64,000 bases of DNA from an uncultured Ignavibacteria bacterium (GTDB lineage: Bacteria; Bacteroidota; Ignavibacteria; UBA10030; UBA6906): assembly GCA_963701735.1 (NCBI GenBank), contig CAVPBI010000019.1, positions 948-64,947 on the forward strand, in the 5' to 3' direction. Position numbers and translations under genes: made by a program. Shown here in pieces: positions 2,168 to 18,674 of the stretch. The notes below the pieces were generated by a model, which did not search any database, was not told the DNA's origin, and saw only the letters and a list, made by a program, of their open reading frames with translations. The number at the start of each line of letters is the position of its first letter. Within the stretch, counting starts at the first letter, position 1.

Positions 2168-2201
2168 CTCGCTGTGGTGTGGCCGTTGTCTGTGTCGACG
2201 G

Positions 2202-2266
2202 GCCGCCCTGGCTGGACCCTGAACCGGCACCTGCGTCCTGGAGCCCACCTCGACGACCCATCGTGG
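2202..2266 (+). repeat. Conserved upstream element, copy 1 (upstream of the PLC-like T9SS gene).
   Basis: GCCGCCCTGGCTGGACCCTGAACCGGCACCTGCGTCCTGGAGCCCACCTCGACGACCCATCGTGG. Confidence 0.5.
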
Positions 2267-2386
2267 AGTGTTGTTGACAAAACCATGATAGTCTTCTTCA
2301 GTCCCGCTTGCCTGGTCGTCCGCCTCGTGCGGCCCCGGCAGTTCCGGATTTGGCTCAGAAGCCAGGATGAAAGGGAGTTGACCTCC

Positions 2387-3898
2387 ATGGCCACGTCACC
2401 GCGCGTGGTAATGCGTTTCGGGGTGGCACTTCTTCTGATTCTCCTGTCGTCCCCGCTTGCGTGGTCCCACAAGCAGCCGGTCCATCAGTACCTTGTTCGT
2501 GAAGGGTATGCCCTGCTTGTGAAAACGTACGGGACAGATATCCCGCAGCTCTCGCGGTTCATAGGGTCAGCGGGCCAATCTGCGATCGGAGACTCCGCGT
2601 GGCAACAGGGCTATGTCACGACGGGGGCATGGCGGGAGGACGAGGAGGACGTCGTCTACCATTACGATATCCTTCCCGGCTTGAACTACGCGCTCACCAG
2701 CATTACGCATTTTTGGTCTGCGGATCGCGGGGATGGCGTCGACAACATGTTCAGGCTCAGAATCGAGCAGCCGCCGCTCCCACCGATCAGCACGGATATT
2801 GGACCCTTCCCGAATGCATATGCCAAACTGAGGAAGTATGCCGAGGGCGGGTGGGTGCTGAACTATCCCCGGCTCTTCGTCTGCCGCAACACAGCGAACA
2901 ACCACTGGCTGGTGATCGCCCCACTTGTTTCGGAGGCCGGCTTCGGGGTTCCGCTGGCGTACAGCGGACTGGCCGACTTCTATTCAAGCGCAAGGCTCAC
3001 GGTGCGAGCGGACCAGCCCAATCTCTGCACAGTCCTTGATGTCACAGACGTGAAGACTATCGAGTTGAGTGATCTGTCGGAGATCGAGGTCGCTGATGAC
3101 GTCCGGAATATCGTGGCCTGGGAAGTGCTCGGGAGGATGTGTCACTTGCTGGCCGACATGAGTGTTCCTGCTCACGCGCATCTGGATGAGCATGGTCTGC
3201 TGGCGGATAGCTACGAAGACTATGTTGGCGGCGCTGGCGATCCCTACCTGGCCTGGAATGCCGACAATGTTGGTCCGGCGATTGTTCTGAACGGTCCGGC
3301 AGACGAAGTGCTTCACGCCCTGATGTACACCACGCAGGAGCAGGCCGACCATTTTGGCAGCAACGGACCCGCCAATGGGGACGGCAACGACGTCATCGGC
3401 GGGGACGCCACGGCGGCAGAGCGAGAGATCCTGAATGCCGTCGACCTGGGGTCCCTCGGCGGGCCGACCACCGATGCCGGGCCCTGGTCGGTCGGTGATC
3501 TGGACATCATCAGGGACAAGACTCTCCCGTATACGATCAGGGCGACGGCCGGACTGCTGTACTGGTTCTCTGTCTCCACCGGACTGATCTCTCCAATCGT
3601 ATCGGTCGCGCCGGGTCAGGGCCAGAATGTGCCGGCCGTGATACACCTCGCACAGAACTACCCGAACCCGTTCAATCCGGCGACGACAATCGCATACGCG
3701 GTGCCGGAGAGATCGCACGTAACGCTCACGGTGTACAATACGCTCGGTGAGAGAGTTGAGGAACTGGTGAACTGTGAGCTGGAGGCTGGCTATCATGACA
3801 TTCTGTTCGATGCCAGCGGCCTGGCGGGCGGGGTCTATCTGTACCGTCTGCAAGCGGGCGACTTCATGCAGACACGGCGATTGTTGTTCCTGAAGTAG
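2387..3898 (+). CDS. Secreted zinc-dependent phospholipase C / S1-P1 nuclease-like domain protein with a T9SS CTD.
   Basis: Signal peptide MATSPRVVMRFGVALLLILLSSPLAWS|HK. An AAGGGAG Shine-Dalgarno sits 10 nt upstream of the ATG at 2387. A mature N-terminal W/H plus the motif HLLADMSVPAHAHLDEH resembles the Zn-ligand motif HYFGDIDTPYH of PLC. The C terminus LAQNYPNPFNPATTIAYAVP...GVYLYRLQAGDFMQTRRLLFLK is a T9SS CTD. Confidence 0.7.
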   Translation: MATSPRVVMRFGVALLLILLSSPLAWSHKQPVHQYLVREGYALLVKTYGTDIPQLSRFIGSAGQSAIGDSAWQQGYVTTGAWREDEEDVVYHYDILPGLNYALTSITHFWSADRGDGVDNMFRLRIEQPPLPPISTDIGPFPNAYAKLRKYAEGGWVLNYPRLFVCRNTANNHWLVIAPLVSEAGFGVPLAYSGLADFYSSARLTVRADQPNLCTVLDVTDVKTIELSDLSEIEVADDVRNIVAWEVLGRMCHLLADMSVPAHAHLDEHGLLADSYEDYVGGAGDPYLAWNADNVGPAIVLNGPADEVLHALMYTTQEQADHFGSNGPANGDGNDVIGGDATAAEREILNAVDLGSLGGPTTDAGPWSVGDLDIIRDKTLPYTIRATAGLLYWFSVSTGLISPIVSVAPGQGQNVPAVIHLAQNYPNPFNPATTIAYAVPERSHVTLTVYNTLGERVEELVNCELEAGYHDILFDASGLAGGVYLYRLQAGDFMQTRRLLFLK

Positions 3899-3943
3899 CT
3901 GTCTTGATTCCTATAGCGCTCTGACCACTTCGAAGTGTCGGTG

Positions 3944-3995
3944 CGCCGCCGAGCGCTTCTGAGGCATCGTCTCACCCGACGACCCATCGACTCTT
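3944..3995 (+). repeat. Conserved upstream element, copy 2 (partial, core only), upstream of the 4012 T9SS gene.
   Basis: ...TCTCACCCGACGACCCATCGACTC. Confidence 0.4.
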
Positions 3996-4011
3996 CCGCA
4001 AGGAGGATACG

Positions 4012-6073
4012 ATGAAAAGCCGCGTCGTCTTCTGCGCCCTCGTTGTTGTTGCGCTCGCTCCGTGCGCGTCGGCCCAGTGGGTACCCACCGGCGGACCGGA
4101 GGGAGGCGAAATCAACTCCATTGCGACAAACGGGTCGATGATCTTCGCTGCGACATTCAATGGCGTGTTCCGTTCCACTGATGGCGGAATGACGTGGGCG
4201 CATATCAACGAAGGGTTGACCAAACCCTGGATTACCTGCTTGCGCATCAATGGCCCGAATCTCTTCGCATCCACCGCCTCGAGCGTCTTTGTCTCTTCTG
4301 ATAACGGTGATCACTGGGTGGAGGGAGGGCCGGGACTTCCTCTCTACTATTATATACGGTCGATGGCGTGTGTAGGCACGGACGTCTTCGCCGGCGTTGA
4401 CGTCGGTGGCGTCTATCGCTCCACCGACAACGGGACCAGCTGGACCGCCGCAAATGAAGGTCTCTCCGACACGAGCATCACCGCGCTCGCAGCCTTTGGA
4501 TCCTCGCTCTTCGCCGGCACACTGGACGGCCTGCATCGCTCGACAGATCTCGGCGTGACATGGGTTCGATCTGACTCAGGGCTTGCTTCGGTCACGGTCA
4601 CATCGATGGTTGCATCGGGGGAGATTCTGCTCGCAGGCGGCTCGAAAGGGGTCTACTCCTCAACTGACACCGGGAGAAGCTGGTCGGCCACGAGCGAGGG
4701 TATCGGCAACAAATGGGTGACCTCCTTGCTCGTCCTCGATACCATGGTCGTTGCCGGGACTACGGACGGCCTGTTCCTCACGACCGACCTCGGAGCGACG
4801 TGGTCTCCCTCGGATAGCGGCCTTTCGCTGGCACAGGTAGTATCCCTGGCCACAGACGGCATGAACCTGTATGCGGGCACCTTCGGGGGCATGTTTGTTT
4901 CCACCGACCGGGGTGCAAGCTGGAACTGGTCGAACAGCGGAATGATTGCCGTGGAAATCACTGCGCTGGCAATTGACGGATCCACGATATTTGCCGGATC
5001 CTTCGGAAGCGGTGTATACCGCACCACGGACGCGGGAAGCACCTGGGAGCACGTCGTCGCAGGTCTGACCAATCCACGAGTAGCCGCGCTTCTTGTTGCA
5101 GGCCAGACGCTGCTGGCCGGTACATACTACGGGGGTGTCTACCGATCAGCCGATCAGGGATCTTCGTGGTACGAAGCCAACGAGGGACTCTCACAGCGGG
5201 TTGTGACCGCGCTGGCAACCGACGGTCTGAACATCTTCGCGGGTGGTTACGGCGGAGTGTCTCTCTCCACCGACGGAGGTGTGACGTGGACGAACAGGAG
5301 CAGCGGATTGCCCGGCGAGGAGGTGAGCGCCCTTTCGGTGTACGACTCCGTCGTCTACGCGGGCACATTTGGCGCCGGGGTATTCGTGTCGACGGACAGC
5401 GGGGCATCGTGGGATACCGCGAACACGGGAATGCCGATGACATACATATACGATTTCGGTTCGATTGGGAGCAGGGTGTTCGCGGTGGGCGATGATGGGG
5501 CATTCTTCACGACAAACAGCGGTGCATCATGGAATCCCACAGCGGCCAGCCTGCCCTTCCCGTACCTGCGGTCCATGGCGATTTCCGGAACCAACCTCTT
5601 CGCAGGGGGAAGCTTCGGGCGCGTCTATGTCACAGAGGATTATGGAGCGCACTGGAAGGATGTGAGGGAAGGGGCCCCTCTCGTTGCGATCGATGCACTT
5701 GTTTCAGACGGAACAGACCTCTTCGGCGGGACCTGGTGCCATGGGGTTGTGCGGCGTCCTCTCTCCGAAATGGTCACGTCGCTCGACGAGCTGGAACCGG
5801 GTTCTCTGCCGGGAGAGCTATTCGCTGGCAAGCTACCCCAACCCTTTCAACTCGCGCACGACGATCCGGTACGCGCTTCCCAAGCGCTCCCACCTGAGGC
5901 TCGACGTATTCAACACGCTCGGGCAATGCGTGGCCACGCTCGTTCTGGGGGAGCAGGAAGCCGGGGTTCACGAGACAGCGTTTGATGCTTCCGCCTGCGC
6001 GAGCGGGGTGTACCTGTACCGGTTGAACGCTGGGGACTATGTGGAGACCAAGAGAGTCGTCCTTATTCGATAG
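4012..6073 (+). CDS. Secreted BNR/Asp-box repeat protein with a T9SS CTD. A +1 frameshift near 5790-5830 separates the body (frame 1) from the CTD (frame 2).
   Basis: AAGGAGG lies 7 nt upstream of the ATG at 4012, and the signal peptide is MKSRVVFCALVVVALAPCASA|QW. The repeats have the same architecture as 2..2167. Frame 1 runs to ...PLSEMVTSLDELEPGSLPGE and then goes out of frame. Frame 2 (5684..6073) carries the CTD: SYSLASYPNPFNSRTTIRYALP...GVYLYRLNAGDYVETKRVVLIR. Confidence 0.75.
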
Positions 6074-6205
6074 AATCAGCGACTCGTCTGCCACCAGCCC
6101 TCATGAATCCCCCGGGACTCGAGGGTCCTTGCATATCTGGGCTGTGCGGGAGTATCTTGCTGCCATACACGGAACTCTGGCGCCCGATGGCAATCCGCCC
6201 TCTGG

Positions 6206-6270
6206 GCCGCCGCCCTGGACCCTGATCTGGTGTCTCCGTTGTAGAGCCCACCCGACGACCTTCTGGCTCG
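6206..6270 (+). repeat. Conserved upstream element, copy 3 (upstream of the Ser/Thr kinase gene).
   Basis: GCCGCCGCCCTGGACCCTGATCTGGTGTCTCCGTTGTAGAGCCCACCCGACGACCTTCTGGCTCG. Confidence 0.5.
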
Positions 6271-6306
6271 TGCATCGCCGTGCCTCCACTGTGGTAAGGA
6301 ACCGCC

Positions 6307-8940
6307 GTGGCTTCCCTGGTGGGTCAGCTGGTTTCTCACTATAGGATTCTCGAGCATCTCGGGGGCGGGGGGATGGGTGTCGTGTATAAGGCCCACGACC
6401 TCCACCTCGACCGGCTCGTTGCCCTCAAGTTCCTCCCTCCGGAATTGACCAGAGACCCCGACGCAAAGGCGCGGTTCATTCATGAGGCCAAGGCCGCGTC
6501 CGCGCTCCAGCACGACAACATCTGCACCATCCACGACGTCGATGAAACCTCTGACGGCCAGCTCTTCATTTGCATGGACCTCTACTGCGGCGAGACTCTC
6601 AAGCGGAAGATCGACAGCGGGCCAGTCCCGGTTGAGGAGGCCATCGGGCTTGCCATCCAGGTAGCCCGAGGGCTCGCGAAGGCGCACGAGGCGGGGATGG
6701 TGCACCGCGATGTCAAGCCGGCGAACATCGTGGTCACGAAGGAAGGGGAGGTGAAGATCGTGGATTTCGGTCTGGCGAAACTTACACGCCAGACGAAACT
6801 CACCAGGGAAGGTTCGACACTGGGGACCGTCGCATACATGTCGCCGGAGCAGGCACGGGGAGAAACAATTGACCACCGAAGCGACATCTGGTCGCTGGGA
6901 GTAGTGCTTCATGAAATGATCACCGGTCACCTGCCGTTCAAGAGCGACTACGAGCAGGCGCTGGTCTATTCCATACTCAACGATGAGGTGCAGCCCATCA
7001 CGGGGATTGATCCGCGGCTCGATGAAGTTATCCGGAAGACACTGGAGAAGGAACCGTCGGCCCGCTACCAGCGGATGGATGAGGTTGAATCCGCTCTGCG
7101 GCAGCTGAAAAGCCTCGATGGTTCAGCCGGGCTGGAAACAGGCCTCGGCGGGAGATGGCGCGGTGTGAAAAGAGGGTGGGTTGTCCTATCGGGGATCATC
7201 CTGCTCGGAGGCATGGCTGGTGTCATGGGGTCTCTCGTTTTCTGGCCCGGTGCAAAGGAGACTCCCTCCCAGGTCAAACGACTGGTCGTGCTGCCGTTTG
7301 AGAACCTGGGTCCGGCCGAGAACGAGTATTTCACGGATGGGGTGACGGAGGAGCTGACGAGCCGGCTTTCCTCTCTGAGGAACCTGAGGGTCATTTCGCG
7401 GACCAGTGCCGTTCAGTACGCGAAAACCGGCAAACCGTTGGAACAGATCACCAGAGAACTGGGCGTCGATTACGTGCTGGAGGGGGCCGTGCGTTGGGCC
7501 CCCTCTCCGGGGGGTGGGAGCCGGGTGCGCATCAATTCCAACCTCACGCGCACGTCCGACAAGACGACGCTCTGGGCGGAGACATACGACCGCGTGATCG
7601 ATGATGTCTTCGCGCTTCAGTCGGAGATATCCCAGAAGGTAGTCGAGCGGCTTGGTGTCACGCTCCTCGCGTCGGAGCGGAAGAATGTCGAGATGCCTCC
7701 GACGCTGAATCTTGGGGCCTACCAGGCATTCCTGCGCGCGCGCTACTACAGGAGCCGGCCTCACTTCACCGCGTCGAACTGGGTGCGTGTTGTGGACGCG
7801 TACCAGCAGGCGGTGGAGCTCGATACGGGATTCGCGCTGGCCTTTGCAGAGCTCGCGTGGGCCCATGCCCGTCTTTACTATCTCTGGCACGATCATTCCC
7901 CGGGCCGCCTGGAATCGGCCACGCGCGCAGCGGAGAAGGCGCTGGCCCTCTCTCCGGAGATGCCCGGTGTCCACCTTGCGCTTGGATACTACTACCTGTA
8001 TGCGGATCGGGATCCGAAGAGAGCGCTCGATCAGTTCGCCATAGCTGAAAAGGGCATGCCTCACAGCGTAGAGATCCTCGAAGCCAAGACCGCGGTTGCA
8101 TCGGTCGATGGGCGATGGGAAGATGCGTTGGAAAGCGTGTGCGAAGCCGTTGAACTCAGTCCGCGAGACGGGTCGCTGATGGTCGATCAGGCTGAGGTGT
8201 ACTGGGTGCTCCGGCGATATGAGGAGGCTGTCAGGACTTGCGATCTGGCCATTGAGCTCGCGCCGGATGATGCCTGGCCATATCTCATGAAAACGTTCTC
8301 GCTCTGGAGCTGGAGAGGCGGAAGTGCTGAGACGCGGGCAATTCTCCAGGCCGTCCCGGTCTCTCACGACTGGGCGGCCTGGGTGTGGTACTGGCAGAGG
8401 ATGTTTGAACGAGACTATGGTGCGGCAATCGAAGGGCTTTCTACAGACTCCAGTGTGTGGATTCGCACCAAGTGCTGGGCGATGCCGAAGTCGCTCCTGT
8501 CTGGCTATGCCTATCTGCTGTCGGGGGATCGGGAGAAATCGCGAACGGCGTACGAATCTGCGCGTGGGATGCTTGAAGCCGAGGTCAGGCAATGGCCGGA
8601 TGACCCGCGGTACCACAGCTCGCTCGGGATAGCGTATGCCGCCCTGGGCCGAAGTGAAGAAGCAGTGCGAGAGGGGAGGAAAGCAGTGGAGCTTCTTCCG
8701 GTCGCAACGGACGCGTTCTACGGGATCCCGTACGTTCAGGACCTCGCCTTCGTCTACACTCTAAACGGAGACACCGAAAAAGCGGTGGACCGGCTCGCGT
8801 ATCTTCTGTCCATCCCGTCGTGGTTTTCGGCCGCATGGCTCCGCATGGATCCGGAGTGGGATCTGCTGCGGGACAAGCCCGCGTTCAAGAGACTCCTGGG
8901 GGGTACAACGCAGTCAGGGACAGGCGGACCCCGGCGTTGA
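6307..8940 (+). CDS. Ser/Thr protein kinase with a transmembrane segment, a TolB-like N-terminal-type domain and C-terminal TPR repeats.
   Basis: GTG start with an AAGGA Shine-Dalgarno. Kinase motifs GGGGMGVVYKA, HRDVKPANIVV, DFGLAK, SPEQ. A transmembrane segment GWVVLSGIILLGGMAGVMG is followed by VVLPFENLGPAENEYFTDGVTEELTSRLS...VISRTS (TolB-N-like), then TPR-like repeats. Confidence 0.9.
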   Translation: MASLVGQLVSHYRILEHLGGGGMGVVYKAHDLHLDRLVALKFLPPELTRDPDAKARFIHEAKAASALQHDNICTIHDVDETSDGQLFICMDLYCGETLKRKIDSGPVPVEEAIGLAIQVARGLAKAHEAGMVHRDVKPANIVVTKEGEVKIVDFGLAKLTRQTKLTREGSTLGTVAYMSPEQARGETIDHRSDIWSLGVVLHEMITGHLPFKSDYEQALVYSILNDEVQPITGIDPRLDEVIRKTLEKEPSARYQRMDEVESALRQLKSLDGSAGLETGLGGRWRGVKRGWVVLSGIILLGGMAGVMGSLVFWPGAKETPSQVKRLVVLPFENLGPAENEYFTDGVTEELTSRLSSLRNLRVISRTSAVQYAKTGKPLEQITRELGVDYVLEGAVRWAPSPGGGSRVRINSNLTRTSDKTTLWAETYDRVIDDVFALQSEISQKVVERLGVTLLASERKNVEMPPTLNLGAYQAFLRARYYRSRPHFTASNWVRVVDAYQQAVELDTGFALAFAELAWAHARLYYLWHDHSPGRLESATRAAEKALALSPEMPGVHLALGYYYLYADRDPKRALDQFAIAEKGMPHSVEILEAKTAVASVDGRWEDALESVCEAVELSPRDGSLMVDQAEVYWVLRRYEEAVRTCDLAIELAPDDAWPYLMKTFSLWSWRGGSAETRAILQAVPVSHDWAAWVWYWQRMFERDYGAAIEGLSTDSSVWIRTKCWAMPKSLLSGYAYLLSGDREKSRTAYESARGMLEAEVRQWPDDPRYHSSLGIAYAALGRSEEAVREGRKAVELLPVATDAFYGIPYVQDLAFVYTLNGDTEKAVDRLAYLLSIPSWFSAAWLRMDPEWDLLRDKPAFKRLLGGTTQSGTGGPRR

Positions 8941-9056
8941 CCTCCCGCCCCTGAGCGCGTATCTTGAAATCCCGATGTGGTTGACGGCGCTCTCGGGTGT
9001 GCCCGGCCCGCGTGCGTTGGGAGCAAGAAGTCGCTGGTAAATTCAGTTTGTTTCAG

Positions 9057-9093
9057 CCGTGTTCAGGGTTGCTGTTGACACCTGTGTTGACAG
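9057..9093 (+). repeat. Left-end cluster of CTGTTGACA-type direct repeats (GTGTTCAGG, CTGTTGACA, GTGTTGACAG). These are candidate integrase arm-type sites.
   Basis: Seen directly. The same 9-mer family recurs at 18148-18173 and 18548-18616. Confidence 0.55.
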
Positions 9094-9104
9094 GGAGGCC
9101 CAGA

Positions 9105-10124
9105 ATGGACACGGTAGGCTTGTGGAAACGCCGCCTGAGTAAGGCGGCGGTTTACTATGTAGGCTACAGCGACGACACTGGCAGGCGACGCTGGAAGTCG
9201 CTTGGCGTGTCAACGAAGGCTGAAGCACAGAAGCAACTGACCCGCTTCAAAGAAATTCTCTCCCAGACTGGCCGCAGGGCTAGCCCATCCCTCAGTCAAT
9301 TCAGCAAAGAGTTTGAACAGTACGCCAAGGGGACCTACGCGCCCCAGTCGTGCTACCTATTCACGTTGACGCTCCGAAGCCTCAGGGAGTGTGTTGGCGA
9401 TATAGCCCTGTCGAAGGTGACGCCCAGAGACGTTGACAAGTGGCTGACGCTCAGACTGTCGCAGGTGAAGCCAGTGTCGGCTAACGTGCAGCTTCGCACC
9501 CTTCGCAGTGCATTTTCAACCGCTCTGCGGTGGAACCTTCTTCCCACAAATCCCGCCAAAGCCGTGACCCTGCCCAGAGTGTCTGGGGAGCCTGCCTCAT
9601 TCCTGACGCGTGCAGAACTTGCTCTGCTGCTTCAACACCTACCTGCATACGTCAGGCCGATTGTCAGGCTTGGTTTCCACACAGGAATGCGTCGTGGTGA
9701 ACTGCTATCCCTCCGATGGTCGCAGGTTGATTTCTGCCGTGGCATCGTCCACGTTCATTCATCGACCACGTTCAAGGTCAAGGCTGGCAGTGATAGGGTG
9801 GTACCATTAAACAGTGAGGCCAGGGCTGTCCTGTTGGCGTTGGACCAGACACAGGAGCTAGTATTCCACCGCGATGGTCGGCCTGTATTGGGCAACCACA
9901 TCACGAAGCTATTCCGTGAGGCGGTCAGGGATGCCAAGCTGGATCACCGGCTCCACTTCCATAGTCTCCGCCATTCATTCTGTTCAAACCTTGCCGCCCA
10001 GGGTGTCAGCCTGTATCAAATCGGTGCCCTAGCCGGTCACAAATAGCCGGTAGTCACGCAAGGGTACTCCCACCTCCAGCCGGAGGATATGGGAAAGGTC
10101 GTGGAACTCCTGGCGGCGAACTAG
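9105..10124 (+). pseudogene. Tyrosine recombinase / phage-type integrase interrupted by an in-frame TAG at 10044-10046, which lies upstream of the catalytic Tyr.
   Basis: AGGGAGG lies 6 nt upstream of the ATG at 9105. HSLRHSF and ALAGHK motifs are present. After the TAG the same frame continues PVVTQGYSHLQPEDMGKVVELLAAN*, which is the conserved C-terminal box carrying the catalytic Tyr. The ORF track's upstream Met at 8997 overlaps the tRNA-derived repeat and is unlikely to be real. Confidence 0.75.
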
Positions 10125-10238
10125 GGGCAATGAAGCCGGCTGTTGCTGCATGTGGTGCAGGGCATGGGTGGGATCAAGCTGGGAATCCGATTGAAGCAGT
10201 CGGTGATGCACTTGAACAAAGTGCTGTTTGGGCTGTGC

Positions 10239-10751
10239 CTACTGGCCGCCATAAGCCATCCTGATATTGATGAACTTCAATTCACCTTCAGTGACGTTGA
10301 AGCCATCTATCGATTGACCCGTGTTCCAATAGACAACCTCAATAAGAAGGGGCGTGAAACTCCAAACCAGCGATGCCTCCTTGTCGTCGCCCCGCTCATC
10401 CGTTCTCTGGAGGGGTTCACCCAGCTTAGATTCGAATTTCCAGATCTTGTCCGTGACACGCAGCCCTGCTATTACGTGGTCAGGGTACGTCATGAATTTC
10501 CTGTTCCCTACTCCTTGAACTGTGATCTCCGAGACGTTCTGGTTCGGGTCGAAAGTGATGGTCAAGCCTGAATTCCTGAACCGGTGGATTTCGTTCGGCG
10601 GACTCTCAACCACATCGCTGGGTCTACCTAGGATTTCATAGACACGGTTCTTCGGGTCGCCCAGGTGAATAGGAAGTTGCCACTCCGGATCCTTCTTGCA
10701 CCCCGGCACAAGGATCCCCAGGACCAGCAGGGTCAGTGCTAAGTGTCTCAT
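10239..10751 (-). CDS. Hypothetical lipoprotein (island cargo).
   Basis: Start ATG at 10751 with AGGGGG 7 nt upstream. The lipobox reads LVLGILVPG|C. I recognise no family. Confidence 0.5.
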   Translation of the reverse strand: MRHLALTLLVLGILVPGCKKDPEWQLPIHLGDPKNRVYEILGRPSDVVESPPNEIHRFRNSGLTITFDPNQNVSEITVQGVGNRKFMTYPDHVIAGLRVTDKIWKFESKLGEPLQRTDERGDDKEASLVWSFTPLLIEVVYWNTGQSIDGFNVTEGELKFINIRMAYGGQ

Positions 10752-11341
10752 GGCACCCCCTAGAAGTTTCCCCGAAGGTACGACACCGGCTCCGCTATTC
10801 CAACCACCACCATCGCTCCCTGGGCCACTCCAGCGGGGCTGTAACCCAGATCTACAGCCATCTCCAGCCTGAGGAGCTGCATGGGGTGGTCGCCCGCATT
10901 GAAGTGCCACTGAACTAGCGATCCGTAGGTGAATCGCGTGTGCGGGCTGGGGCACCCTGTAGAATCAATTCTTTGGAGATCACTAGTTTTCGGCCTCCAA
11001 AAAGGTGCTACTGACGCGGGGTTTGGAAGGCACCCTGACGGGTCGGCGAAGAACAGGGCTAGGCCGGTATAAGACTAGCCATTTCTGACAATGGTCCAGT
11101 GATAACGTTTTGAGTGGCCTGTTTCTGGCAAGAAACACGCTTCTAGTGGCCCCCCGAACGACACCTCTCAATTCCCCGCGAGGGGCACTAGACCCCTTCT
11201 TCCTGGGGTTAACTACTCTTTCATCATTTCGGTTGATTCACGATGAAGTTCCGTCTGGTACACTTCATCGGGTTAATAGGTGCTACCATTGTGATTTCTG
11301 GATGTGATTGAACACCCGATGGCTTCCGCTGCTTCAGGGTT

Positions 11342-11404
11342 GCCGCCTTGGACTTTGTTCCGGACTCTTCGTTGCAAAGCCCACTCGGACGACCTATCGG
11401 GCTG
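11342..11404 (+). repeat. Conserved upstream element, copy 4 (upstream of the 11528 T9SS gene).
   Basis: GCCGCCTTGGACTTTGTTCCGGACTCTTCGTTGCAAAGCCCACTCGGACGACCTATCGGGCTG. Confidence 0.5.
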
Positions 11405-11527
11405 ATTATCGTACGAATTGTCCAATCGTTCATTGACCCTGCACGCGGTTTCCTGGTGTCGCATTTAGCGCCGCCGAGTGTTGCTGCTCCATCGTCCTAC
11501 ATCCTTCCTCAAGGGGAGGCGACATCC

Positions 11528-12769
11528 ATGAACAGAATACTCATTCTAGCTGGAATGTGTCTTGCTCAGGTTCTTCCGATTGCAAGTGGAATCTCTCAAT
11601 GGATTTCCAGAGGTGGCCCGAACGATGTGTTTTGCTTTGCTGTCGATGCAGAGCGTGGGCTATGGCTTGGAAGTCGGTTTGAAGGAGTCTATCGGTCGCT
11701 GGACGGGGGTGACAGTTGGATTCTGAGCGACACGGGACTGACCAATAAACATATCAACACATTGATGGTTACGCCACGCGGTGTGTTTGCGGGTACGAGG
11801 GGCGGCATATTTCTCTCCACAGACGGCGGCAGTTTGTGGGCCCATTCCGACGGTGGCATCGACACGAGCGTTGCCGCCAACGAAGTAATGGCACTTGCTA
11901 GGGTTGGGACTTATTTGTTCGCGGGGATGGGGGGAAATGGAGTCTACAGGTCGTCGGATGAGGGAGTAACTTGGTCTCAAGCCAGTTCAGGATTGGACGA
12001 GAACTATATCTGGTCAATGGCAGCCGTTGGCAACGACATCTTTGCGGGGACCGACAAGTCAATCTATATAAGTCAAAATTCTGCGAGCACATGGACCCAA
12101 GTGAACTTGGGATTGCCTACATCACCCGTATACGCAATTACTTCGTTGGGGTCGATTCTCATAATTGGCACAGACAAAGGAGTGTACACGCTCACCAACG
12201 TGGGAAGCACTTGGCAACACAAGAGTCTCGGGCGCCCAAATGAAGATGTGTGGTCTGTGGTCGTCGATAGCGCACGCGTCTTCACAGCCAATTATGGTTA
12301 TGGGGTCTTTCGGTCGGATGATTCCTGTTCAACATGGCATGATGTCAGTACAGGACTAACCAACCTCGTGGTCTGGCGCATTGTCATGGTTACACATGCT
12401 ACGAGGGAGACCGATTTGCTTGTGGGAACAAACGGGTCGGGCGTTTGGCAGCGGCCTCACTTTGAACTGCTAACTGCAGTTGACGATCACAGCGGGATGG
12501 TGCCACAGGCGTTCCTACTGTCTCAGAACTACCCCAACCCATTCAATCCCAATACGATTATCACGTACGAGTTACCCAAATTGTCTGAGGTCAGGTTAGG
12601 TGTCTACGACATGCTTGGACGTGAGGTATCCGTGTTGGTGAATGACAGGAGAGAGGCGGGAGTTCACGAGGTTCAGTTTGATGGGTCTGGTTTTGCGGGC
12701 GGCGTGTACTTCTACCGACTTCAGACGGGAGATTTCATGGCGACGAAGTGGCTCCTCTTATTAAAGTGA
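11528..12769 (+). CDS. Secreted BNR/Asp-box repeat protein with a T9SS CTD (island cargo, lower GC).
   Basis: AAGGGGAGG lies upstream of the ATG at 11528, and the signal peptide is MNRILILAGMCLAQVLPIASG. STDGGSLW-type repeats are present. The C terminus LSQNYPNPFNPNTIITYELP...GVYFYRLQTGDFMATKWLLLLK is a T9SS CTD. Confidence 0.8.
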   Translation: MNRILILAGMCLAQVLPIASGISQWISRGGPNDVFCFAVDAERGLWLGSRFEGVYRSLDGGDSWILSDTGLTNKHINTLMVTPRGVFAGTRGGIFLSTDGGSLWAHSDGGIDTSVAANEVMALARVGTYLFAGMGGNGVYRSSDEGVTWSQASSGLDENYIWSMAAVGNDIFAGTDKSIYISQNSASTWTQVNLGLPTSPVYAITSLGSILIIGTDKGVYTLTNVGSTWQHKSLGRPNEDVWSVVVDSARVFTANYGYGVFRSDDSCSTWHDVSTGLTNLVVWRIVMVTHATRETDLLVGTNGSGVWQRPHFELLTAVDDHSGMVPQAFLLSQNYPNPFNPNTIITYELPKLSEVRLGVYDMLGREVSVLVNDRREAGVHEVQFDGSGFAGGVYFYRLQTGDFMATKWLLLLK

Positions 12770-12968
12770 AGGCGGGCTCAGATATCCCACGCAAGCAATT
12801 CTTTCAGAGGCGAATGCCGAAGTCGGGAAAGATTCCCGAGTTGTGTTTTTCGTAACCGCCGCCGTTTGGGGGAATCAAAGGCGGATGGTCTACAATGCGG
12901 AGACCAAATCGCGTGTTGGTCGACAAGAAGCGGGATGTACAAACATTCGAAATAGAGAGGCAAGAACC

Positions 12969-14510
12969 GTGAAAAGCACTCTTCTCATGGTGACCCTTTG
13001 CAGCCTTCTGCCTGCGACGATACATGCGCAATGGTTCAAGATGACTGACGGTGACGTGTTTGCATTCGCCAAGAGCGCCTCGGATCTCTTTGCGGGAACT
13101 ACCGGTGGAGTCTTGCTTTCAACCGATGAGGGGACAACTTGGACTGCGGTCAACACGGGGTTACCGACGGACCCTCGCGTCCGTGCCCTCGCCGTCTCCG
13201 GCGGGAATCTCTTCGCTGGGTGTTATGTCGATGGCGTCTTTCTCTCCACCGACAACGGTGCAAGCTGGAGTAATACCGGCTTCCAAGGCACTAATGTTAC
13301 AGCTTTTGCCGTCTTGGGTACTAATCTCTTTGTTGGGACTGGCGGCTTCGGCGTCTATCTCTCAGCGGACAACGGCACAAGCTGGACTACAGCGAGTGCC
13401 GGCTTGACGCCTGATGTCCGCTGTCTTGCCGTCAGCGGCTCGAATCTTTTTGCAGGGACCTATGGCGGCGACGCCATCTATCTCTCAACGAACAACGGGA
13501 CAAGTTGGACTGCGGTCAATACCGGCTTGACGACCTTTGTTGTCCATGCTCTTGCGGTCTCGGACACGAATCTCATTGCAGGGGCTCGGGACGGCACCTT
13601 TCTTTCAACCGACAACGGAGCGAACTGGACACTAGCCTCCCCGAAAACGGAAGTTCGGGCCTTGGCGGTCAGTGACACCAGTCTTTTTGCCGGATTTAGC
13701 GGCTCAGGCGTTGATGGTTCGACCAACGGCGGCACAAGTTGGTTCGAAGGTTATTGGAATGGGGGTCGTGCCGCTTGTAGGGCACTCTGTATTACGACCT
13801 CGTATCTCTTTTTTGGAGACGAGAACGGGGCTTGGCGGAGAAGCCTAACTGAGTTGCTGCCGGAATTCTATCCCCCCCGTATTGGAAGCGTGCGTGATGT
13901 CCCGAATGACCAAGGCGGTAAGGTCAGCATGCTCTGGTCCCGGTCAAGCCTGGATATAACGGCTATTCAGACTATCACAGAGTATAGAGTATGGCGCGGG
14001 GTGAGGAACGCACTCTTGTCAATTGTCTGGGAGTATGTTGGCTCGAGCCCCGCGCAAGGCTTTCCTGAGTACTCCTATACGGTGCCGACGCCCTCTGACT
14101 CCGGCCCCCAAGGCAACTCCATGTACTACTTCCGCGTGAGTGCTCAAACTACAACACCTGAGACATCCTTTTTCTCTAAGCCCGACAGCGGCTACAGCGT
14201 GAACAACCTCCTGATTGGTGTGGATGATGATAATCAGTCAGTAGTCTCCTCGTATTCACTCAGCCAGAACTACCCAAATCCATTCAATCCGAGCACGACA
14301 ATCAGATACGCGCTGCCGGAGAGGTCTCACGTCACTCTCACAGTCTTCAACGCGCTCGGGCAGCAGGTAGCCACCCTGGTTCAGGCAGAGCAGGAGGCTG
14401 GGTATCACGAGGTGCAGTATGAAGCTTCAAGCCTTGCAAGCGGAGTATACCCCTACAGGTTGCAGGCGGGAGATTTCGCACAGACGCGACGACTTGTATT
14501 GCTGCGCTAG
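12969..14510 (+). CDS. Secreted BNR/Asp-box repeat protein with a central Ig/CARDB-like region and a T9SS CTD.
   Basis: GTG at 12969 (VKSTLLMVTLCSLLPATIHA|QW) with GAGAGG upstream. An alternative start is the ATG at 12987. LFAGTxGGVxLSTDxGTxWT repeats are present. The C terminus LSQNYPNPFNPSTTIRYALPERSHVTLTVFNALGQ...GVYPYRLQAGDFAQTRRLVLLR is a T9SS CTD. Confidence 0.8.
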   Translation: MKSTLLMVTLCSLLPATIHAQWFKMTDGDVFAFAKSASDLFAGTTGGVLLSTDEGTTWTAVNTGLPTDPRVRALAVSGGNLFAGCYVDGVFLSTDNGASWSNTGFQGTNVTAFAVLGTNLFVGTGGFGVYLSADNGTSWTTASAGLTPDVRCLAVSGSNLFAGTYGGDAIYLSTNNGTSWTAVNTGLTTFVVHALAVSDTNLIAGARDGTFLSTDNGANWTLASPKTEVRALAVSDTSLFAGFSGSGVDGSTNGGTSWFEGYWNGGRAACRALCITTSYLFFGDENGAWRRSLTELLPEFYPPRIGSVRDVPNDQGGKVSMLWSRSSLDITAIQTITEYRVWRGVRNALLSIVWEYVGSSPAQGFPEYSYTVPTPSDSGPQGNSMYYFRVSAQTTTPETSFFSKPDSGYSVNNLLIGVDDDNQSVVSSYSLSQNYPNPFNPSTTIRYALPERSHVTLTVFNALGQQVATLVQAEQEAGYHEVQYEASSLASGVYPYRLQAGDFAQTRRLVLLR

Positions 14511-14626
14511 CATCTGTTGCTCAACGTCTTCTGCATTTCAGCAGGCCGCGGACCGGTGCTCAGAGTGGCCCTTCTTTCGTGTCTTTCCGGCCCGTTACTT
14601 CATGCCCCAATGCCCCGGAGGCACCA

Positions 14627-16078
14627 ATGAAGCCAAGTCCATTCCCACTCCTGACCATGTTCAGCCTCTTCGTCGTGTTCGCGAGCCAGACGGATGCGCA
14701 GACGCTAGTCCTGGACACAACGTATAGCACGTCATCCTACGAGGAGGCATATGCACTCGTTCTGCCTCCCTCTGGTGGGTACGTGGTGGCAGGCACTTCC
14801 AGCCCTGGCGGCAACAGTCCTGGAACCGCAGCAATCACACTATTTGACAGTCTACTCCGATTCGAGCGCAGGGTTTCCTACTATGGGGCGTACTCCGCCA
14901 CTGGATATTCGATGAAACACACCTTTGACAACGGATATGTGATTACAGGGGTAACTCGTAGCTCTGATGGTGTTGGGGGCAGTGACATATATGTCTTGAA
15001 GGTAGATGCACAAGGTGATCCGAATTGGGACACCTGGTACGGCACCAACTATGCTGACGTAGGACGCGATGTCGCTCAGGCTCAGGATCTTGGGTATGTG
15101 GTTGTAGGGGACAAGGGTGACCAATCCGGAGGGCAGGATTTGTGGCTGGTGAAGTTCGACCTATATGGAAACTTTGACTGGGAGAAATCCTACGGGGACG
15201 CTGATCTTGGTAGGGCGATCTGTGAAACGGGCGATGGGGGGTTTGTCGTGGCAGGTGAAGTCACGTCCTCTCCGAACACAGATGCATTTGTAATGGGTGT
15301 CTCGGCTGATGGGAGTAGACTCTGGTCGAAGCGCTTGGCCCCTCGTACCATAACGAATGCCGCCGCGGTAAAGAGGATACCTTCGGGAGGATATATCGTT
15401 GCCGGGTCCGCCACAGCCTGGCCAAACTTGGATTACGATATCTATCTGATGAGATTCAACGAGACAGGAGATACGCTCTGGACAAAGATCGTGGAACTAC
15501 CCGGGGACCAGATCCCTGCATCCGTCGAGATCGGCGTCGGGGGTGGGTTTGTGGTAGCTGGGAGGAACATCCGGGATTCAAACTCTGACCTCACAGACAT
15601 CCTGATCGCCCGGTTCGATGATGCTGGTAATATGCGATGGAGTAGACTGATCGGTGGGGCAAAGGCTGACTACGGCTATTCCGTCGGAGTGGCTAAGGAC
15701 ACTTCGTACGTTGTGGCGGGAACTTCCTTCAGTTCGAGCAGCGGAACGGCCGATATCATGCTTTGTGGAGTGAAGGACATCCTCTCCGATGTTGGACCTG
15801 GAGTCTCGGCCCCAAACGGTTTCGCTCTTGGCCAGAACTATCCAAACCCTTTCAACCCGAGCACGACCATCAAGTACGAGTTGCCGAAAGCGTCGGTCGT
15901 GAGGCTGAGTGTCTACGACTTACTCGGTCGTGAGGTATCCGTGTTGGTGGATGAGAGGAGGGATGCTGGAGTGCACCAGGTTCAATTCGATGCCTCTGGA
16001 CTGGCAAGTGGAGTGTACCTGTACCGACTGCAGGCTGGCGACTTCGTCCAGACCCGCAGACTGGTTCTAATACATTAA
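14627..16078 (+). CDS. Secreted SBBP-type beta-propeller repeat protein with a T9SS CTD.
   Basis: Signal peptide MKPSPFPLLTMFSLFVVFASQTDA|Q. There are about seven repeats of the form Y(G/S)xxxxDxGxxIxxTxDGG(Y/F)VVAG, which are SBBP-like. The C terminus LGQNYPNPFNPSTTIKYELP...GVYLYRLQAGDFVQTRRLVLIH is a T9SS CTD. Confidence 0.75.
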   Translation: MKPSPFPLLTMFSLFVVFASQTDAQTLVLDTTYSTSSYEEAYALVLPPSGGYVVAGTSSPGGNSPGTAAITLFDSLLRFERRVSYYGAYSATGYSMKHTFDNGYVITGVTRSSDGVGGSDIYVLKVDAQGDPNWDTWYGTNYADVGRDVAQAQDLGYVVVGDKGDQSGGQDLWLVKFDLYGNFDWEKSYGDADLGRAICETGDGGFVVAGEVTSSPNTDAFVMGVSADGSRLWSKRLAPRTITNAAAVKRIPSGGYIVAGSATAWPNLDYDIYLMRFNETGDTLWTKIVELPGDQIPASVEIGVGGGFVVAGRNIRDSNSDLTDILIARFDDAGNMRWSRLIGGAKADYGYSVGVAKDTSYVVAGTSFSSSSGTADIMLCGVKDILSDVGPGVSAPNGFALGQNYPNPFNPSTTIKYELPKASVVRLSVYDLLGREVSVLVDERRDAGVHQVQFDASGLASGVYLYRLQAGDFVQTRRLVLIH

Positions 16079-16100
16079 CCACGGCCCAGACTCTTCAAAT

Positions 16101-16135
16101 GGGGGGCCTGTTTTTGGCCCCCCCGCTTCTTTCCG
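16101..16135 (+). terminator. Rho-independent terminator downstream of the 14627..16078 gene.
   Basis: GGGGGGCC-tgttttt-GGCCCCCC stem-loop followed by a CTTCTTTCC T-rich tract. Confidence 0.6.
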
Positions 16136-16367
16136 TCCAAAAATCCAGCCAAAACCACAGCTCTGCGAAGCCTGTTTGCGCTATCTCCTCCAAGGGGTAT
16201 CCAGAGTACCCCCCGGGAGAGTTCGCCCCGAAACCTCGTGTTGAGTGGGGGTTTTTCAGCGACGAATGGCTCTCCCCGGACCTCTCCGGGGCCCTTGCTA
16301 TTGGTCCCCTCGTGCAGTACGTTCGGCCACATGTTGTTTGGTGCTCTGTGGCTTCTCCAGCCATCGA

Positions 16368-16432
16368 GCCGCCGCTTTGGACCCTGGAATAGTTCTTCCG
16401 TTGTAGAGCCCACCCTGACGACCCCCTGGCTG
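16368..16432 (+). repeat. Conserved upstream element, copy 5 (upstream of the 16619 T9SS beta-lactamase-like gene).
   Basis: GCCGCCGCTTTGGACCCTGGAATAGTTCTTCCGTTGTAGAGCCCACCCTGACGACCCCCTGGCTG. A 25-nt core is identical to copy 3 apart from one inserted T. Confidence 0.5.
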
Positions 16433-16618
16433 TAAGCCTCGACGTACACTGATTTCACGGTGACTGAGAGACTCAGTGGCTCGACGTAGAAGTCAGCGAG
16501 CCGTCGAGTGTTTCTGGTCTGCCCGACGACGCGCCGAGTTCTGCGTCAAGGTGTCATTCACTGGTTGTCGTAGCGGCCTGTTCAGGTTGAGAGTTACCTA
16601 CACAACAACGGAGGAGTT

Positions 16619-18145
16619 ATGCCCCGATTGTATTTGCTTCTTTTCGCTGTGGCGCTGGCTGTTAATGCGAACGGCCAGAGTTCAGTGTCGCTGCAACCAC
16701 ACCGGGGTCCATTGAGAGAAAACATTCCCGCAGCCGCCACGCGAGCGACTGCGTCCGTTTCCCAAACCAGTGCCCCTAGTACCTCCACTTCGCTCGACAG
16801 TTTTTTTACCGCGTATATGGCCACATACCACATTCCGGGGGTAGCGGCATGCATTATCAAGAAGAATAGGGTGGCATGGCAAGGATACTATGGATTGGCG
16901 GACATGTCCCTGAACATCAACGTTACCGACAGTACCATCTTCATGCTTGGCTCAATCTCAAAAACAGTCACCACCACTGCGCTGATGCAACTGTATGAGG
17001 CCGGCCGTTTCCAGCTTGACGATAGCGTAGACAGATATGTCCGGTTTGAAGTCCGCAACCCAAACCACCCGAGTGTTCCGATTACATTCAGAATGTTGCT
17101 CACTCACACTTCTTCGATAGGGGACAACTGGGCCGTTTTGTCCAATCTCTATGTCATGGGCGACCACCCGTTGTCGCTCGGTACGTTTCTTAGGAGGTAT
17201 TTGTTGCCAGGAGAAAGGTACTACAGTTTAGGTAACTTCTATAGGTATGCCCCGGGGACCACCTGGAATTACTGTAATGTCGGGGCTGCTCTTTGCGGTT
17301 ACCTTGTTGAAAGGATATCAGGGATTCCATTTGACCAGTATTGCAGAGACAGCGTCTTTGTGCCTTTACGAATGGCACGGACGGCCTGGTTCCTCCGAGA
17401 TCTGGACACCGCCTTGGTTGCACGCCCCTACACGTATTCGTCTGGAACGTATATTGACCAGGGCCTGTATGGTTACCCTGACTATCCGGATGGCCAACTA
17501 CGAACGACAGCTGCTTCCCTCGCCAGGTTTCTCATGGCCAACATGAACGGCGGCGAACTGGATGGCCAGAAGGTGCTCGACAGTTCAACCGTTCGCCTGA
17601 TGCGCACACGGTGGTTCTTCGGTGGAGCCGGGGGTAGACAAGAAGACCAAGGCTTGATATGGTACACAGCGACGATTAACGGTAAGAGACTCTGGGGACA
17701 CACGGGCGGAGATGCCGGTGTTACAACCGCGGCATTCCTGTCGGAACAGGATAGCACTGGCGTTCTGTTTCTGTCAAACCTCTCCCCCGACGATTTCGCC
17801 TGGCGAGACATTGTCGATCGATTGATGACCGAAGCCGACACACTTACTGTGGACGTGCGTCAACCCGTCGCCTATGGGCCGGAGGAAGTTCTGCTGCACC
17901 AGAACTATCCCAACCCATTTAACCCCAGCACTACTATTCGATACGCGCTACCGATACGCTCACACGTCGTGCTCACCATCTTCAATATGCTAGGAGAGAG
18001 GGTAGCGGAGCTTGTGAATGGAGAGGTAGAGGCTGGCTATCATGAGGTCCAGTTCGATGGAGCGACTCTCGCAAGTGGTGTGTACTTCTACCGACTGCAA
18101 GCGGGAGATTTTGTGCACTCGAAGAAATTGATGATTGTGCGTTAA
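16619..18145 (+). CDS. Serine beta-lactamase / PBP4-family hydrolase with a T9SS CTD.
   Basis: AGGAG lies upstream of the ATG. Signal peptide MPRLYLLLFAVALAVNANG|QS. SxxK (SISK), YxN (YCN) and HTGGDAG motifs are present. The C terminus LHQNYPNPFNPSTTIRYALP...GVYFYRLQAGDFVHSKKLMIVR is a T9SS CTD. Confidence 0.8.
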   Translation: MPRLYLLLFAVALAVNANGQSSVSLQPHRGPLRENIPAAATRATASVSQTSAPSTSTSLDSFFTAYMATYHIPGVAACIIKKNRVAWQGYYGLADMSLNINVTDSTIFMLGSISKTVTTTALMQLYEAGRFQLDDSVDRYVRFEVRNPNHPSVPITFRMLLTHTSSIGDNWAVLSNLYVMGDHPLSLGTFLRRYLLPGERYYSLGNFYRYAPGTTWNYCNVGAALCGYLVERISGIPFDQYCRDSVFVPLRMARTAWFLRDLDTALVARPYTYSSGTYIDQGLYGYPDYPDGQLRTTAASLARFLMANMNGGELDGQKVLDSSTVRLMRTRWFFGGAGGRQEDQGLIWYTATINGKRLWGHTGGDAGVTTAAFLSEQDSTGVLFLSNLSPDDFAWRDIVDRLMTEADTLTVDVRQPVAYGPEEVLLHQNYPNPFNPSTTIRYALPIRSHVVLTIFNMLGERVAELVNGEVEAGYHEVQFDGATLASGVYFYRLQAGDFVHSKKLMIVR

Positions 18146-18173
18146 TCACTTGACATCACACGTTTGACAACAG

Positions 18174-18205
18174 GCCCAGGCAGCGATGTCTGGGCTTTCT
18201 TTTTC
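18174..18205 (+). terminator. Rho-independent terminator downstream of the 16619..18145 gene.
   Basis: GCCCAG-gcagcgatgt-CTGGGC followed by TTTCTTTTTC. Confidence 0.6.
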
Positions 18206-18547
18206 ATCCCCCTCGCCCTCCTAGTACTTCCCGAATGATTTTCAAAAATATTGTGTGCGGACCAAATAGATTGAAGCCTACCCCCCTTGAATAGCGGGTT
18301 TTGGGTCGAGTTCAGGTTGAGTTTGATTTCAATCTGGATAAAGGGACTCTGAGACCATGACGCCCTGACGTAGGCCATGCCTTTCACAAGAACTCCCCGC
18401 TCAACAACGAGTTTTACGGCTAGCTCCAGCGGGTGACCAGTGAGGTGGGGTGGAGGGGGTCGGAGGGGAAAGCGGTGTTGAAGGTGTTTGATTAGCTGTG
18501 TGACCTCTTGAAGGCGGGAAGGTGGGGCGACCCTTGACTGCCGGCCA

Positions 18548-18616
18548 GGGTGTTCGTACCTTTGCTCCGGCGTGTTGACAAACGTGTTGACAGAAGTTGT
18601 CGACACTTGTCAACAG
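18548..18616 (+). repeat. Right-end cluster of GTGTTGACA / CTGTTGACA repeats (direct and inverted) immediately upstream of tRNA-Pro. These are candidate arm-type sites.
   Basis: Sequence: GTGTTCG...CGTGTTGACAaacGTGTTGACAGaaGTTGTCGACActTGTCAACAG. It mirrors the left-end cluster at 9057-9093, and a further pair lies at 18148-18173. Confidence 0.55.
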
Positions 18617-18674
18617 TCGCCAAAACTAACGCCTGAACATGACAGAAAATCGCTGAAACAAGCCTAAATTCCCT

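Follow-up and report, generated by a model that had tools for sequence, protein, structure and literature searches.

The 64,000-nt stretch of an uncultured Ignavibacteria genome analysed here (contig CAVPBI010000019.1, positions 948 to 64,947; we call this whole stretch the window) contains four copies of a conserved non-coding element of about 100 bases, which we designate type A, and three sites of a shorter relative, type B. Type A lies between a promoter and a start codon, on the strand of the gene that follows, and many of the genes behind it encode cargo proteins of type IX secretion (T9SS), Ser/Thr protein kinases and sensor histidine kinases. Promoter and element together are a conserved promoter-plus-leader unit that is not listed in Rfam 15 and is specific to an Ignavibacteria lineage. 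We put the chances at about even that the element is a cis-acting mRNA leader read by a trans-acting factor, an interpretation drawn from sequence comparison.

The element in the window

Within the window we looked for the element by repeat finding, with an nhmmer profile and with a covariance model. A preliminary description of this DNA had proposed five copies of one family. Four of them (c1, c3, c4 and c5) are true homologues: the repeat search placed them in a single family (D10), the profile retrieved them with E values of 4e-16 to 9e-20, nothing else in the 64 kb scoring below 0.5, and the covariance model found these four type A copies at 60-116 bits. They have in common the skeleton GCCGCC..TGGAC-N16-CGT-N5-AGCCCAC-N2-3-GACGACC, and c3 and c5 do contain, as described, the same 25-nt core except for one inserted T. 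The remaining copy (copy 2, formerly placed at 3944-3995) is only a shorter relative, of type B, that lacks TGGACCCTG and CCGTTGTAGAGCC, reaches an E value of 1.2 against the full model and shares only ACCCGACGACCCATCG with the others. The "sixth half-site" suspected near position 16515 is real as well, but it is the core of a second type B module, located in the leader of c5 (Table 1).

The conserved block reaches about 35 nt further 5' than the coordinates first given to it, and this extension is a hairpin. All four type A copies are on the + strand, as had been stated, and no opposite-strand copy was found in the window by the profile or covariance-model search. Between the end of GACGACC and the start codon lie 129, 27, 47, 134 and 196 nt in copies 1, 2, 3, 4 and 5, respectively.

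Conservation across genomes and the genes downstream

Beyond the window, one genome per GTDB species was scanned with an exact pattern and a metagenome collection with a looser one, the latter giving at least 120 loci. The exact pattern returned 12 loci, nine of them true copies from seven metagenome-assembled genomes (MAGs) labelled Ignavibacteriota, Ignavibacteria or Bacteroidetes; the other three are chance matches inside genes of Actinomycetes, Haliangiales and Streptomyces. Profile and covariance-model searches of the window and of the listed loci yielded at least 63 full-length matches, of which 61 are distinct. These 61, i.e., the distinct type A copies among the matches listed (the four of the window plus those from Ignavibacteriota/Bacteroidota MAGs and metagenomes), fit the model end to end with 58-116 bits and underlie all the counts per copy given below. 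The hosts are soil and wetland Ignavibacteria, and several named MAG species carry the element. Copies cluster: there are four within 16 kb in the window, and three to four in loci L007/L028, L020 and L127. An uncultured Ignavibacteria MAG (CAWABB010000001.1) has three copies.

A same-strand open reading frame (ORF) starts 2 to ~390 nt downstream of the element in 51 of the 61 copies (750 nt once, where two copies precede one ORF), and for the remaining 10 the contig ends 49-535 nt from the element. These ORFs often have a GGAGG Shine-Dalgarno (SD) sequence and a signal peptide or a kinase N-terminus. Pfam families could be counted in 49 downstream ORFs, of which many are truncated at a contig end: Por_Secre_tail appears in 14, Sortilin-Vps10/BNR in seven, Pkinase with TPR in six, Reg_prop in five (two of these with HisKA/HATPase/Y_Y_Y) and the beta-lactamase fold in two. 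Behind the element there is an enrichment of T9SS sorting domains, BNR/Sortilin propellers, Ser/Thr kinases with TPR and Reg_prop sensor kinases, so that the association with T9SS cargo and Ser/Thr kinases first seen in the window holds across genomes and extends to sensor histidine kinases. For the window itself, four T9SS substrates and one kinase had been counted behind the five copies. Pfam supports the kinase (Pkinase plus TPR) and three of the substrates (Por_Secre_tail), while the fourth, 4012-5985, is a BNR/Sortilin protein for which Pfam calls no C-terminal sorting domain; its 3' end groups with the other sorting domains in one DNA repeat family.

Four independently fetched loci with orthologues of the window kinase (60-76% identical; 83 kb, T9SS cargo included) contain zero copies. 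The element is therefore lineage-restricted and not a property of the kinase orthogroup. Locus L134 (ENA contig_3754, 13073-20988), which has a 73%-identical kinase orthologue from another lineage, contains in 11 kb four genes for Ser/Thr kinases plus one for a GAF-SpoIIE phosphatase; this locus, too, has no copy of the leader element.

As for previously described motifs, the 4227 families of Rfam 15, run over the whole window at gathering thresholds, detected three tRNAs only, and at E <= 10 (window 16250-16650) or E <= 5 (L007, with three copies) nothing overlapped the element. The literature on RNA motifs, promoters and regulons of Ignavibacteria and T9SS, searched also with sequence words, does not describe it, in line with the initial remark that no described motif matched.

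Promoter and position in the transcript

When the alignment was extended upstream, a canonical promoter became visible, TTGAC(A)-N17-TA(T/C)ATT(T), which is also compatible with the TAnnTTTG -7 box of the Bacteroidota type. A pattern of TTGnnn-N16-18-[TC]Ann[TAC]T, placed so that 87-105 nt separate the end of its -10 from that of GACGACC, is found in 46 of the 61 copies versus 4% of shuffled controls. Because this primary-sigma promoter stands at a fixed distance, the whole conserved block is predicted to be transcribed, from about 10-20 nt after the start site. The window copies with such promoters are c3, where 102 nt separate the end of the -10 hexamer from the end of GACGACC, and c5, whose promoter is preceded by a terminator-like hairpin (16101-16123).

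The promoters, together with the same-strand ORFs, bear out the proposal of a shared cis-acting element at gene starts. Of the options offered for it at the time, the 5' untranslated region is favoured by the promoter at a fixed upstream distance, the extracytoplasmic function (ECF) sigma promoter is disfavoured and a DNA-binding regulator is possible (see below). The preliminary description had already spoken against a random dispersed repeat, and a miniature inverted-repeat transposable element (MITE) or another mobile repeat is contradicted by the single orientation relative to the promoter and to the downstream ORF where present, and by the fixed place between them.

Three copies, in L129, L031 (1797-1921) and L020 (12914-13038), are without a TTGACA/TATATT promoter. 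They share ATCTGCACTCCC(T/A)CCTC(T/C)CCCGCGG..ATCCTC at ~100-160 nt upstream of the GACGACC end, a sequence that may be a different kind of promoter or may mark where an upstream element ends.

Anatomy of type A and type B

A typical type A element begins with the P0/P1 hairpin, GGYGCYC-GATGGCT-loop-AGCCATC-GRG(C)CGCC, whose place is taken by unrelated sequences in window c1, L038, L031, L087 and L002. It is followed by unit 1, G(A/G)GCC-N9-GACCC, a pyrimidine tract, UUCCUCCG, and unit 2, GAGCC-N9-GACCC, which corresponds to the AGAGCCCACCCCGACGACC originally reported. Taking the GACCC blocks as reference, the distance between the two units is 40 nt in 45 of the 61 copies; the unit spacers are 8-10 nt, and C and G account for 44% and 18%, respectively, of the stretch from the UUCCUCCG tract to just past unit 2. 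Subclass A1, the main one, has a further hairpin (P2, CUGGA-CCCUGU-UCCAG) that overlaps unit 1, and a small 3' hairpin, GGCU-GNR-AGCC, is often present in type A.

Type B follows type A in leaders that are ~150-250 nt long and reads ..GGCTCGAYGTAGGAGTC..GCCGYCGAGYGTTTCTG..CGTCCYACCCGACGACCCAYCGAGTC. It matches the covariance model weakly (E = 0.02-0.04), and a dedicated type B profile finds the three window sites and several other loci, alone or behind type A. It retains GAGCC/GCCGCC and ACCCGACGACC without the middle of type A, and looks like a shortened duplicate of the repeat unit.

There is no conserved ORF in the element: only 15 of the 61 copies are open from a candidate ATG through the core, and indels split the frame of the core 32/16/13, which excludes coding. 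The same conclusion had been reached before from stops supposedly conserved in all three frames, an argument that does not stand, since two frames of the consensus are open. A small ORF suggested by the consensus (MASPAIEPPLWTLFQFLRCRAHPDDP) was dropped because of frame-shifting 1-nt indels and stops.

Evidence for and against RNA structure

The part of the element with the clearest signs of RNA structure is the 5' hairpin, the position of which is kept by differing sequences (window c1, L038, L031, L087, L002 and L006). In the model-fitted alignment 72.6% of its cells are paired and 21 of 24 pairs have changed on both sides; pair 18-59, for example, alternates between C-G (25 copies) and U-A (16). 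The observed values were not reached in any of 500 shuffles, the true register is clearly better than slid registers, and the MAFFT alignment gave similar results for this hairpin. Both sides of the small 3' hairpin have changed as well, and the proposed helices contain more G.U than A.C cells on the sense strand (184 vs 76). The word "structured", which had been attached to the 5' untranslated region option, may be appropriate for the 5' hairpin with its compensatory change, but in the most conserved part the evidence for RNA structure is weak.

Several observations indeed weigh against a leader acting as RNA. The covariation statistics come from related sequences and a partly model-fitted alignment, and for this reason are supportive, not decisive. 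RNAalifold found no sense-strand consensus structure in either the MAFFT or the model-fitted alignment, and the folding energy of the sense strand does not exceed what its shuffled versions reach (mean z = -0.35). Folding of the antisense strand is better than that of dinucleotide shuffles: the mean z is -1.49, z lies below -2 in 23 of the 61 copies, and a paired comparison gives t = -7.2. Pairing within the invariant core is not supported, its blocks show no covariation because they hardly vary, and the P2 hairpin is confined to subclass A1. No intrinsic terminator lies between element and start codon in the window and conserved anti-SD pairing is absent from the minimum-free-energy folds; therefore, an expression platform is not defined. 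Finally, a canonical promoter was not found upstream of window copies c1 and c4, and the transcription start is predicted.

Other candidate structures were rejected. P2 as a universal hairpin is ruled out, as it forms in A1 only, and a third helix (CGUUG/CGACG around UAGAGCCCACCC) is unsupported, its middle pair being U-A in 30 copies and C.A in 28. An all-against-all ranking of column covariation brought up mainly C/U changes opposite invariant G and gave no information. In most minimum-free-energy folds (18 of 31) the partner of the SD is a local sequence that is not conserved, and not one of the conserved blocks. Complementarity of the UUCCUCCG tract to the SD shows a weak excess (duplex energies, t = -2.5, n = 31), and with this weak signal alone and no consistent partner, sequestration of the SD by a conserved block was dropped.

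Proposed mechanism and alternatives

If the element is an mRNA leader, transcription would start at a strong primary-sigma promoter (TTGACA-N17-TAnnTT) and the P0/P1 hairpin, variable in sequence and constant in position, would form after ~10-20 nt. The transcript would then expose a nearly invariant, C-rich and largely unpaired stretch with two direct repeats 40 nt apart, to which long leaders would add a third, shortened unit (type B). The repeat units might be RNA binding sites for one trans-acting factor, most likely a multimeric RNA-binding protein and less so a small RNA, that would set translation, stability or transcript elongation. In this way, T9SS-secreted beta-propellers and hydrolases might be co-regulated with Ser/Thr kinases and sensor histidine kinases. 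A block at about +10 to +100 would be unusual for an operator and normal for a leader element, and a protein on flexible RNA would tolerate the variation of +/-1 nt in the 8-10-nt unit spacers more easily than a dimer on B-DNA. We infer the regulatory function of the element, the use of the promoter, the recognition of RNA over DNA, the factor and its nature, and the direction of regulation from such patterns. The wider picture is a tentative one that we hold slightly more doubtful than not: a dedicated post-transcriptional regulon of Ignavibacteria, with a repeat-unit leader behind a hairpin, an RNA-binding regulator coupling T9SS cargo to kinase signalling, and a leader that travels on an integrative island.

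The main rival to an RNA leader is a DNA operator array, in which a transcription factor would occupy the duplex at the two units downstream of the promoter and block or modulate elongation. A DNA-binding regulator is a possible mechanism. The short invariant blocks have nearly fixed spacing and make up two units of 19 bp at a distance of 40 bp, both of them imperfect inverted repeats (GRGYC-N9-GRGYC), the blocks also nest as imperfect inverted repeats, the core is without a thermodynamic or covariation signal on the sense strand, and the regulon contains signalling proteins, which are often autoregulated. We nevertheless consider an operator unlikely. Its position, ~+25 to +95 from the predicted start, would be atypical, the half-sites are strictly asymmetric (GAGCC always 5', GACCC always 3'), the spacers vary by +/-1 bp (8-10 bp), a spacing of 40 bp corresponds to a non-integral number of helical turns, and a DNA site does not explain the compensatory change in the adjacent hairpin. 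An internal promoter of the ECF type, TGGAC-N16-CGT(T/C), which would provide a stress-responsive second start with AGAGCCCACCCCGACGACC as the initial transcribed sequence, appears improbable. TGGAC-N16-CGT is exact in the four window copies, and there are precedents in other T9SS bacteria. In Porphyromonas gingivalis the T9SS machinery genes are under the control of an ECF sigma factor, through PorXY-SigP. In Flavobacterium psychrophilum an ECF-like promoter motif, SM6, precedes T9SS genes (PMC9723704). However, CGT has U at its third position in 30 of the 61 copies and C in 28, i.e., about half have CGC, and the presumed -35 is GGACC or TTGACC, without an AAC core. The canonical primary-sigma promoter lies ~60 nt upstream at a fixed distance, the hairpin in between shows compensatory change and the conserved block begins ~10-20 nt after the predicted start. 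Conservation peaks downstream of the putative -10, which is atypical for a promoter, and no sigma-factor family was found among the 25 most frequent Pfam families listed for the 49 downstream ORFs or in the ~30 window ORFs scanned.

The better folding of the antisense strand, together with the value for window c5 (-48.5 kcal/mol, z = -3.9), would fit a functional structure on that strand, either an antisense RNA or single-stranded DNA, with the invariant blocks as two nested G.U-containing helices; the fixed mismatches between paired blocks are nearly all A.C on the sense strand and hence G.U on the antisense strand. The folding difference arises because GRGCCGCCG is quasi-complementary to CGACGACCC, and UGGACCCU to AGAGCCCA, and it may be a by-product of the internal repeat, since GAGCC resembles the reverse complement of GACCC apart from transitions. 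The mismatch pattern is partly a selection effect, given that the helix-finding algorithm accepts G.U, and in other helices G.U exceeds A.C on the sense strand. Moreover, sporadic variants of the blocks are C-to-U opposite G, which keep pairing on the sense and not on the antisense strand, there is no conserved antisense promoter, and what lies 3' of the element differs from one gene family to another, all of which makes this explanation highly improbable. The last alternative is that the element is a non-functional remnant, upstream regions having been copied along with paralogous cargo genes. Many downstream genes are in fact paralogous BNR/Sortilin cargo in tandem arrays, and the copies cluster as described above. 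Yet the element is conserved across species and across unrelated downstream families (kinase, histidine kinase, beta-lactamase fold, membrane protein), and far better than the adjacent spacer and the coding DNA repeats (60-77% identical); a remnant of this kind is hardly credible.

The copies in the window and their surroundings

The coordinates of the window copies, of their recognizable parts and of the genes behind them are collected in Table 1. Copy c1 starts 10 nt past the stop codon (2167) of the preceding gene and may be read through from it, and c4 is the most diverged window copy (GGACTTT, AAAGCC). Copy 2 is followed by TCTTCC-GCAA-GGAGGA and then the ATG at 4012, a possible SD-sequestering hairpin read from the sequence of this copy only.

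Table 1. Type A and type B copies in the window, with predicted promoters and downstream genes
Feature	Position	Strand	Evidence or details
Type A copy c1	2177..2273	+	59.7 bits, E=1.8e-15
c1, 5' hairpin	2177-2208	+	
c1, unit 1	2200-2219	+	GGGCC..GACCC
c1, unit 2	2241-2259	+	GAGCC..GACCC
Gene 3' of c1, secreted protein with T9SS C-terminal sorting domain	2387..3898	+	Por_Secre_tail E=1.4e-6
Type B, copy 2	3904..3992	+	..GTCGGTGCGCCGCCGAGCGCTTCTG..ATCGTCTCACCCGACGACCCATCGACTC, E=4.2e-15
Gene 3' of copy 2, BNR/Sortilin-Vps10 repeat protein	4012..5985	+	Pfam, DNA repeats
Predicted primary-sigma promoter of c3	6129..6158	+	TTGCAT, 18-nt spacer, TATCTT
Type A copy c3	6178..6276	+	80.9 bits
c3, 5' hairpin	6178-6212	+	
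c3, unit 1	6204-6222	+	
c3, P2	6215-6230	+	CTGGA/TCTGG
c3, unit 2	6244-6261	+	
Gene 3' of c3, Ser/Thr protein kinase with TPR repeats	6307..8940	+	Pkinase E=1.2e-48
Type A copy c4	11310..11409	+	62.7 bits
Degenerate type B remnant 3' of c4	11467..11500	+	GCGCCGCCGAGTGTT..CATCGTCCTAC, E=3.6e-4
Gene 3' of c4, BNR/Sortilin repeats and T9SS sorting domain (Por_Secre_tail)	11528..12769	+	Pfam
Predicted primary-sigma promoter of c5	16295..16323	+	TTGCTA, 17-nt spacer, TACGTT
Type A copy c5	16339..16438	+	115.9 bits
c5, 5' hairpin	16339-16374	+	
c5, unit 1	16366-16384	+	
c5, unit 2	16406-16424	+	
c5, 3' hairpin	16428-16438	+	GGCT-GTA-AGCC
Type B in c5 leader, with the "sixth half-site" CCCGACGAC	16461..16540	+	E=3e-16
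Gene 3' of c5, beta-lactamase-fold protein with T9SS sorting domain (Por_Secre_tail)	16619..18145	+	Pfam

A 30-nt direct repeat, 93% identical, is found at 9009-9038, where the region of an integrase (8997-10046) starts, and at 18701-18730, inside a tRNA-Pro (18675-18750), and the GC content falls from ~0.61 to ~0.54 between roughly 10 and 18 kb. Repeat and GC drop indicate an integrative island of ~9.7 kb bounded at the tRNA-Pro. It holds four T9SS cargo genes, two of them with the leader element (c4 and c5), and cargo genes of this kind thus appear to move horizontally. The two others, 12843-14510 and 14579-16078, are preceded by gaps of 73 and 68 nt, too short for an element. The first of these gaps, between 11528-12769 and 12843-14510, contains a terminator-like hairpin (12823-12839, TCGGGAAAGATTCCCGA then GTTGTGTTTT), which suggests that genes without a leader of their own may not be simply co-transcribed with the first one.

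The cargo genes are themselves rich in repeats. A coding repeat of ~120 nt, (G)GVF(L/V)STDNGxxW, which corresponds to the blades of BNR/Sortilin beta-propellers, occurs 28 times at 110-1706, 4279-5533, 11681-11840 and 13104-13743, in at least four neighbouring cargo genes, and the C-terminal sorting domains form DNA repeat families of their own (D2 and D3, ~200 nt). Elsewhere in the window, two paralogous neighbours (39760-40914 and 40839-41966) have 74% identical DNA segments (40186-40378 and 41175-41367) and probably represent a duplicated pair of von Willebrand-type genes, located upstream of BatD in a Bat (aerotolerance) operon. A low-complexity tract of coding sequence rich in CAG/CAA (D7, 42492-42649), encoding a Q/K/N-rich stretch, ends the ORF 41849-42787, which adjoins the BatD-like gene (42789-44624).

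Significance and comparison with known systems

The published regulators of T9SS (PorXY-SigP, ECF-type promoters) target the secretion machinery, and the element described here marks cargo genes instead. It appears to define the cargo genes and the kinases, the latter probably being sensors of the signal in question, as a group under joint control in an uncultured lineage of soil and wetland. Should the post-transcriptional regulon sketched above prove right, the element would be the first one acting in cis that is known for the cargo genes of T9SS and not for its machinery genes, and would represent a new class of protein-binding or ligand-binding leader. It is also an unlisted candidate for the catalogue of bacterial leader motifs, and offers a handle of ~100 nt for finding the regulator, for predicting the regulon in MAGs by covariance model and for testing whether RNA or DNA is the target of control.

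As in the ECF control of T9SS (PorXY-SigP, SM6), a shared upstream motif ties genes of the T9SS pathway together. Those systems act on machinery genes through the promoter, whereas the element stands before genes for cargo and signalling, has a primary-sigma promoter upstream of it and fails the features of an ECF promoter. Another parallel is provided by the leaders of processive antitermination, ops/JUMPstart-RfaH and the UpxY leaders of Bacteroides capsule operons, which also consist of a conserved early-transcribed element in front of genes for surface or secreted products; elongation control is one possible outcome for the present element as well. Unlike in these, most targets here are single genes and not long operons, and the element, as judged from the alignment, does not contain the ops consensus GGCGGTAGnnTG; a NusG paralogue was not seen beside the copies, although no systematic search for one was made.

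Orphan cis-regulatory leader RNAs (Rfam "Cis-reg; leader", riboswitch candidates) resemble the element in their location between promoter and start codon on the sense strand, in their recurrence before functionally related genes in many genomes, and in having conserved nucleotides flanked by at least one stem with compensatory change. They differ from it in that its core is a tandem sequence repeat with little demonstrable pairing and in that no expression platform was found, be it a terminator or a helix sequestering the SD. Secreted proteins and signalling kinases, not a metabolic pathway, make up the regulon, which hence does not suggest a metabolite ligand. The repeat unit GRGCC-N9-GACCC also differs from the sites of CsrA/RsmA (GGA), TRAP and PyrR, RNA-binding proteins that occupy a number of recurring sites in one leader, and we do not claim membership in any of these groups. 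The resemblance to their leaders is functional only: there, too, two to three short units are repeated (here 40 nt apart) in an otherwise unstructured leader, and the hexaloop hairpin of the element has a conserved loop, (G)ACCCUG.

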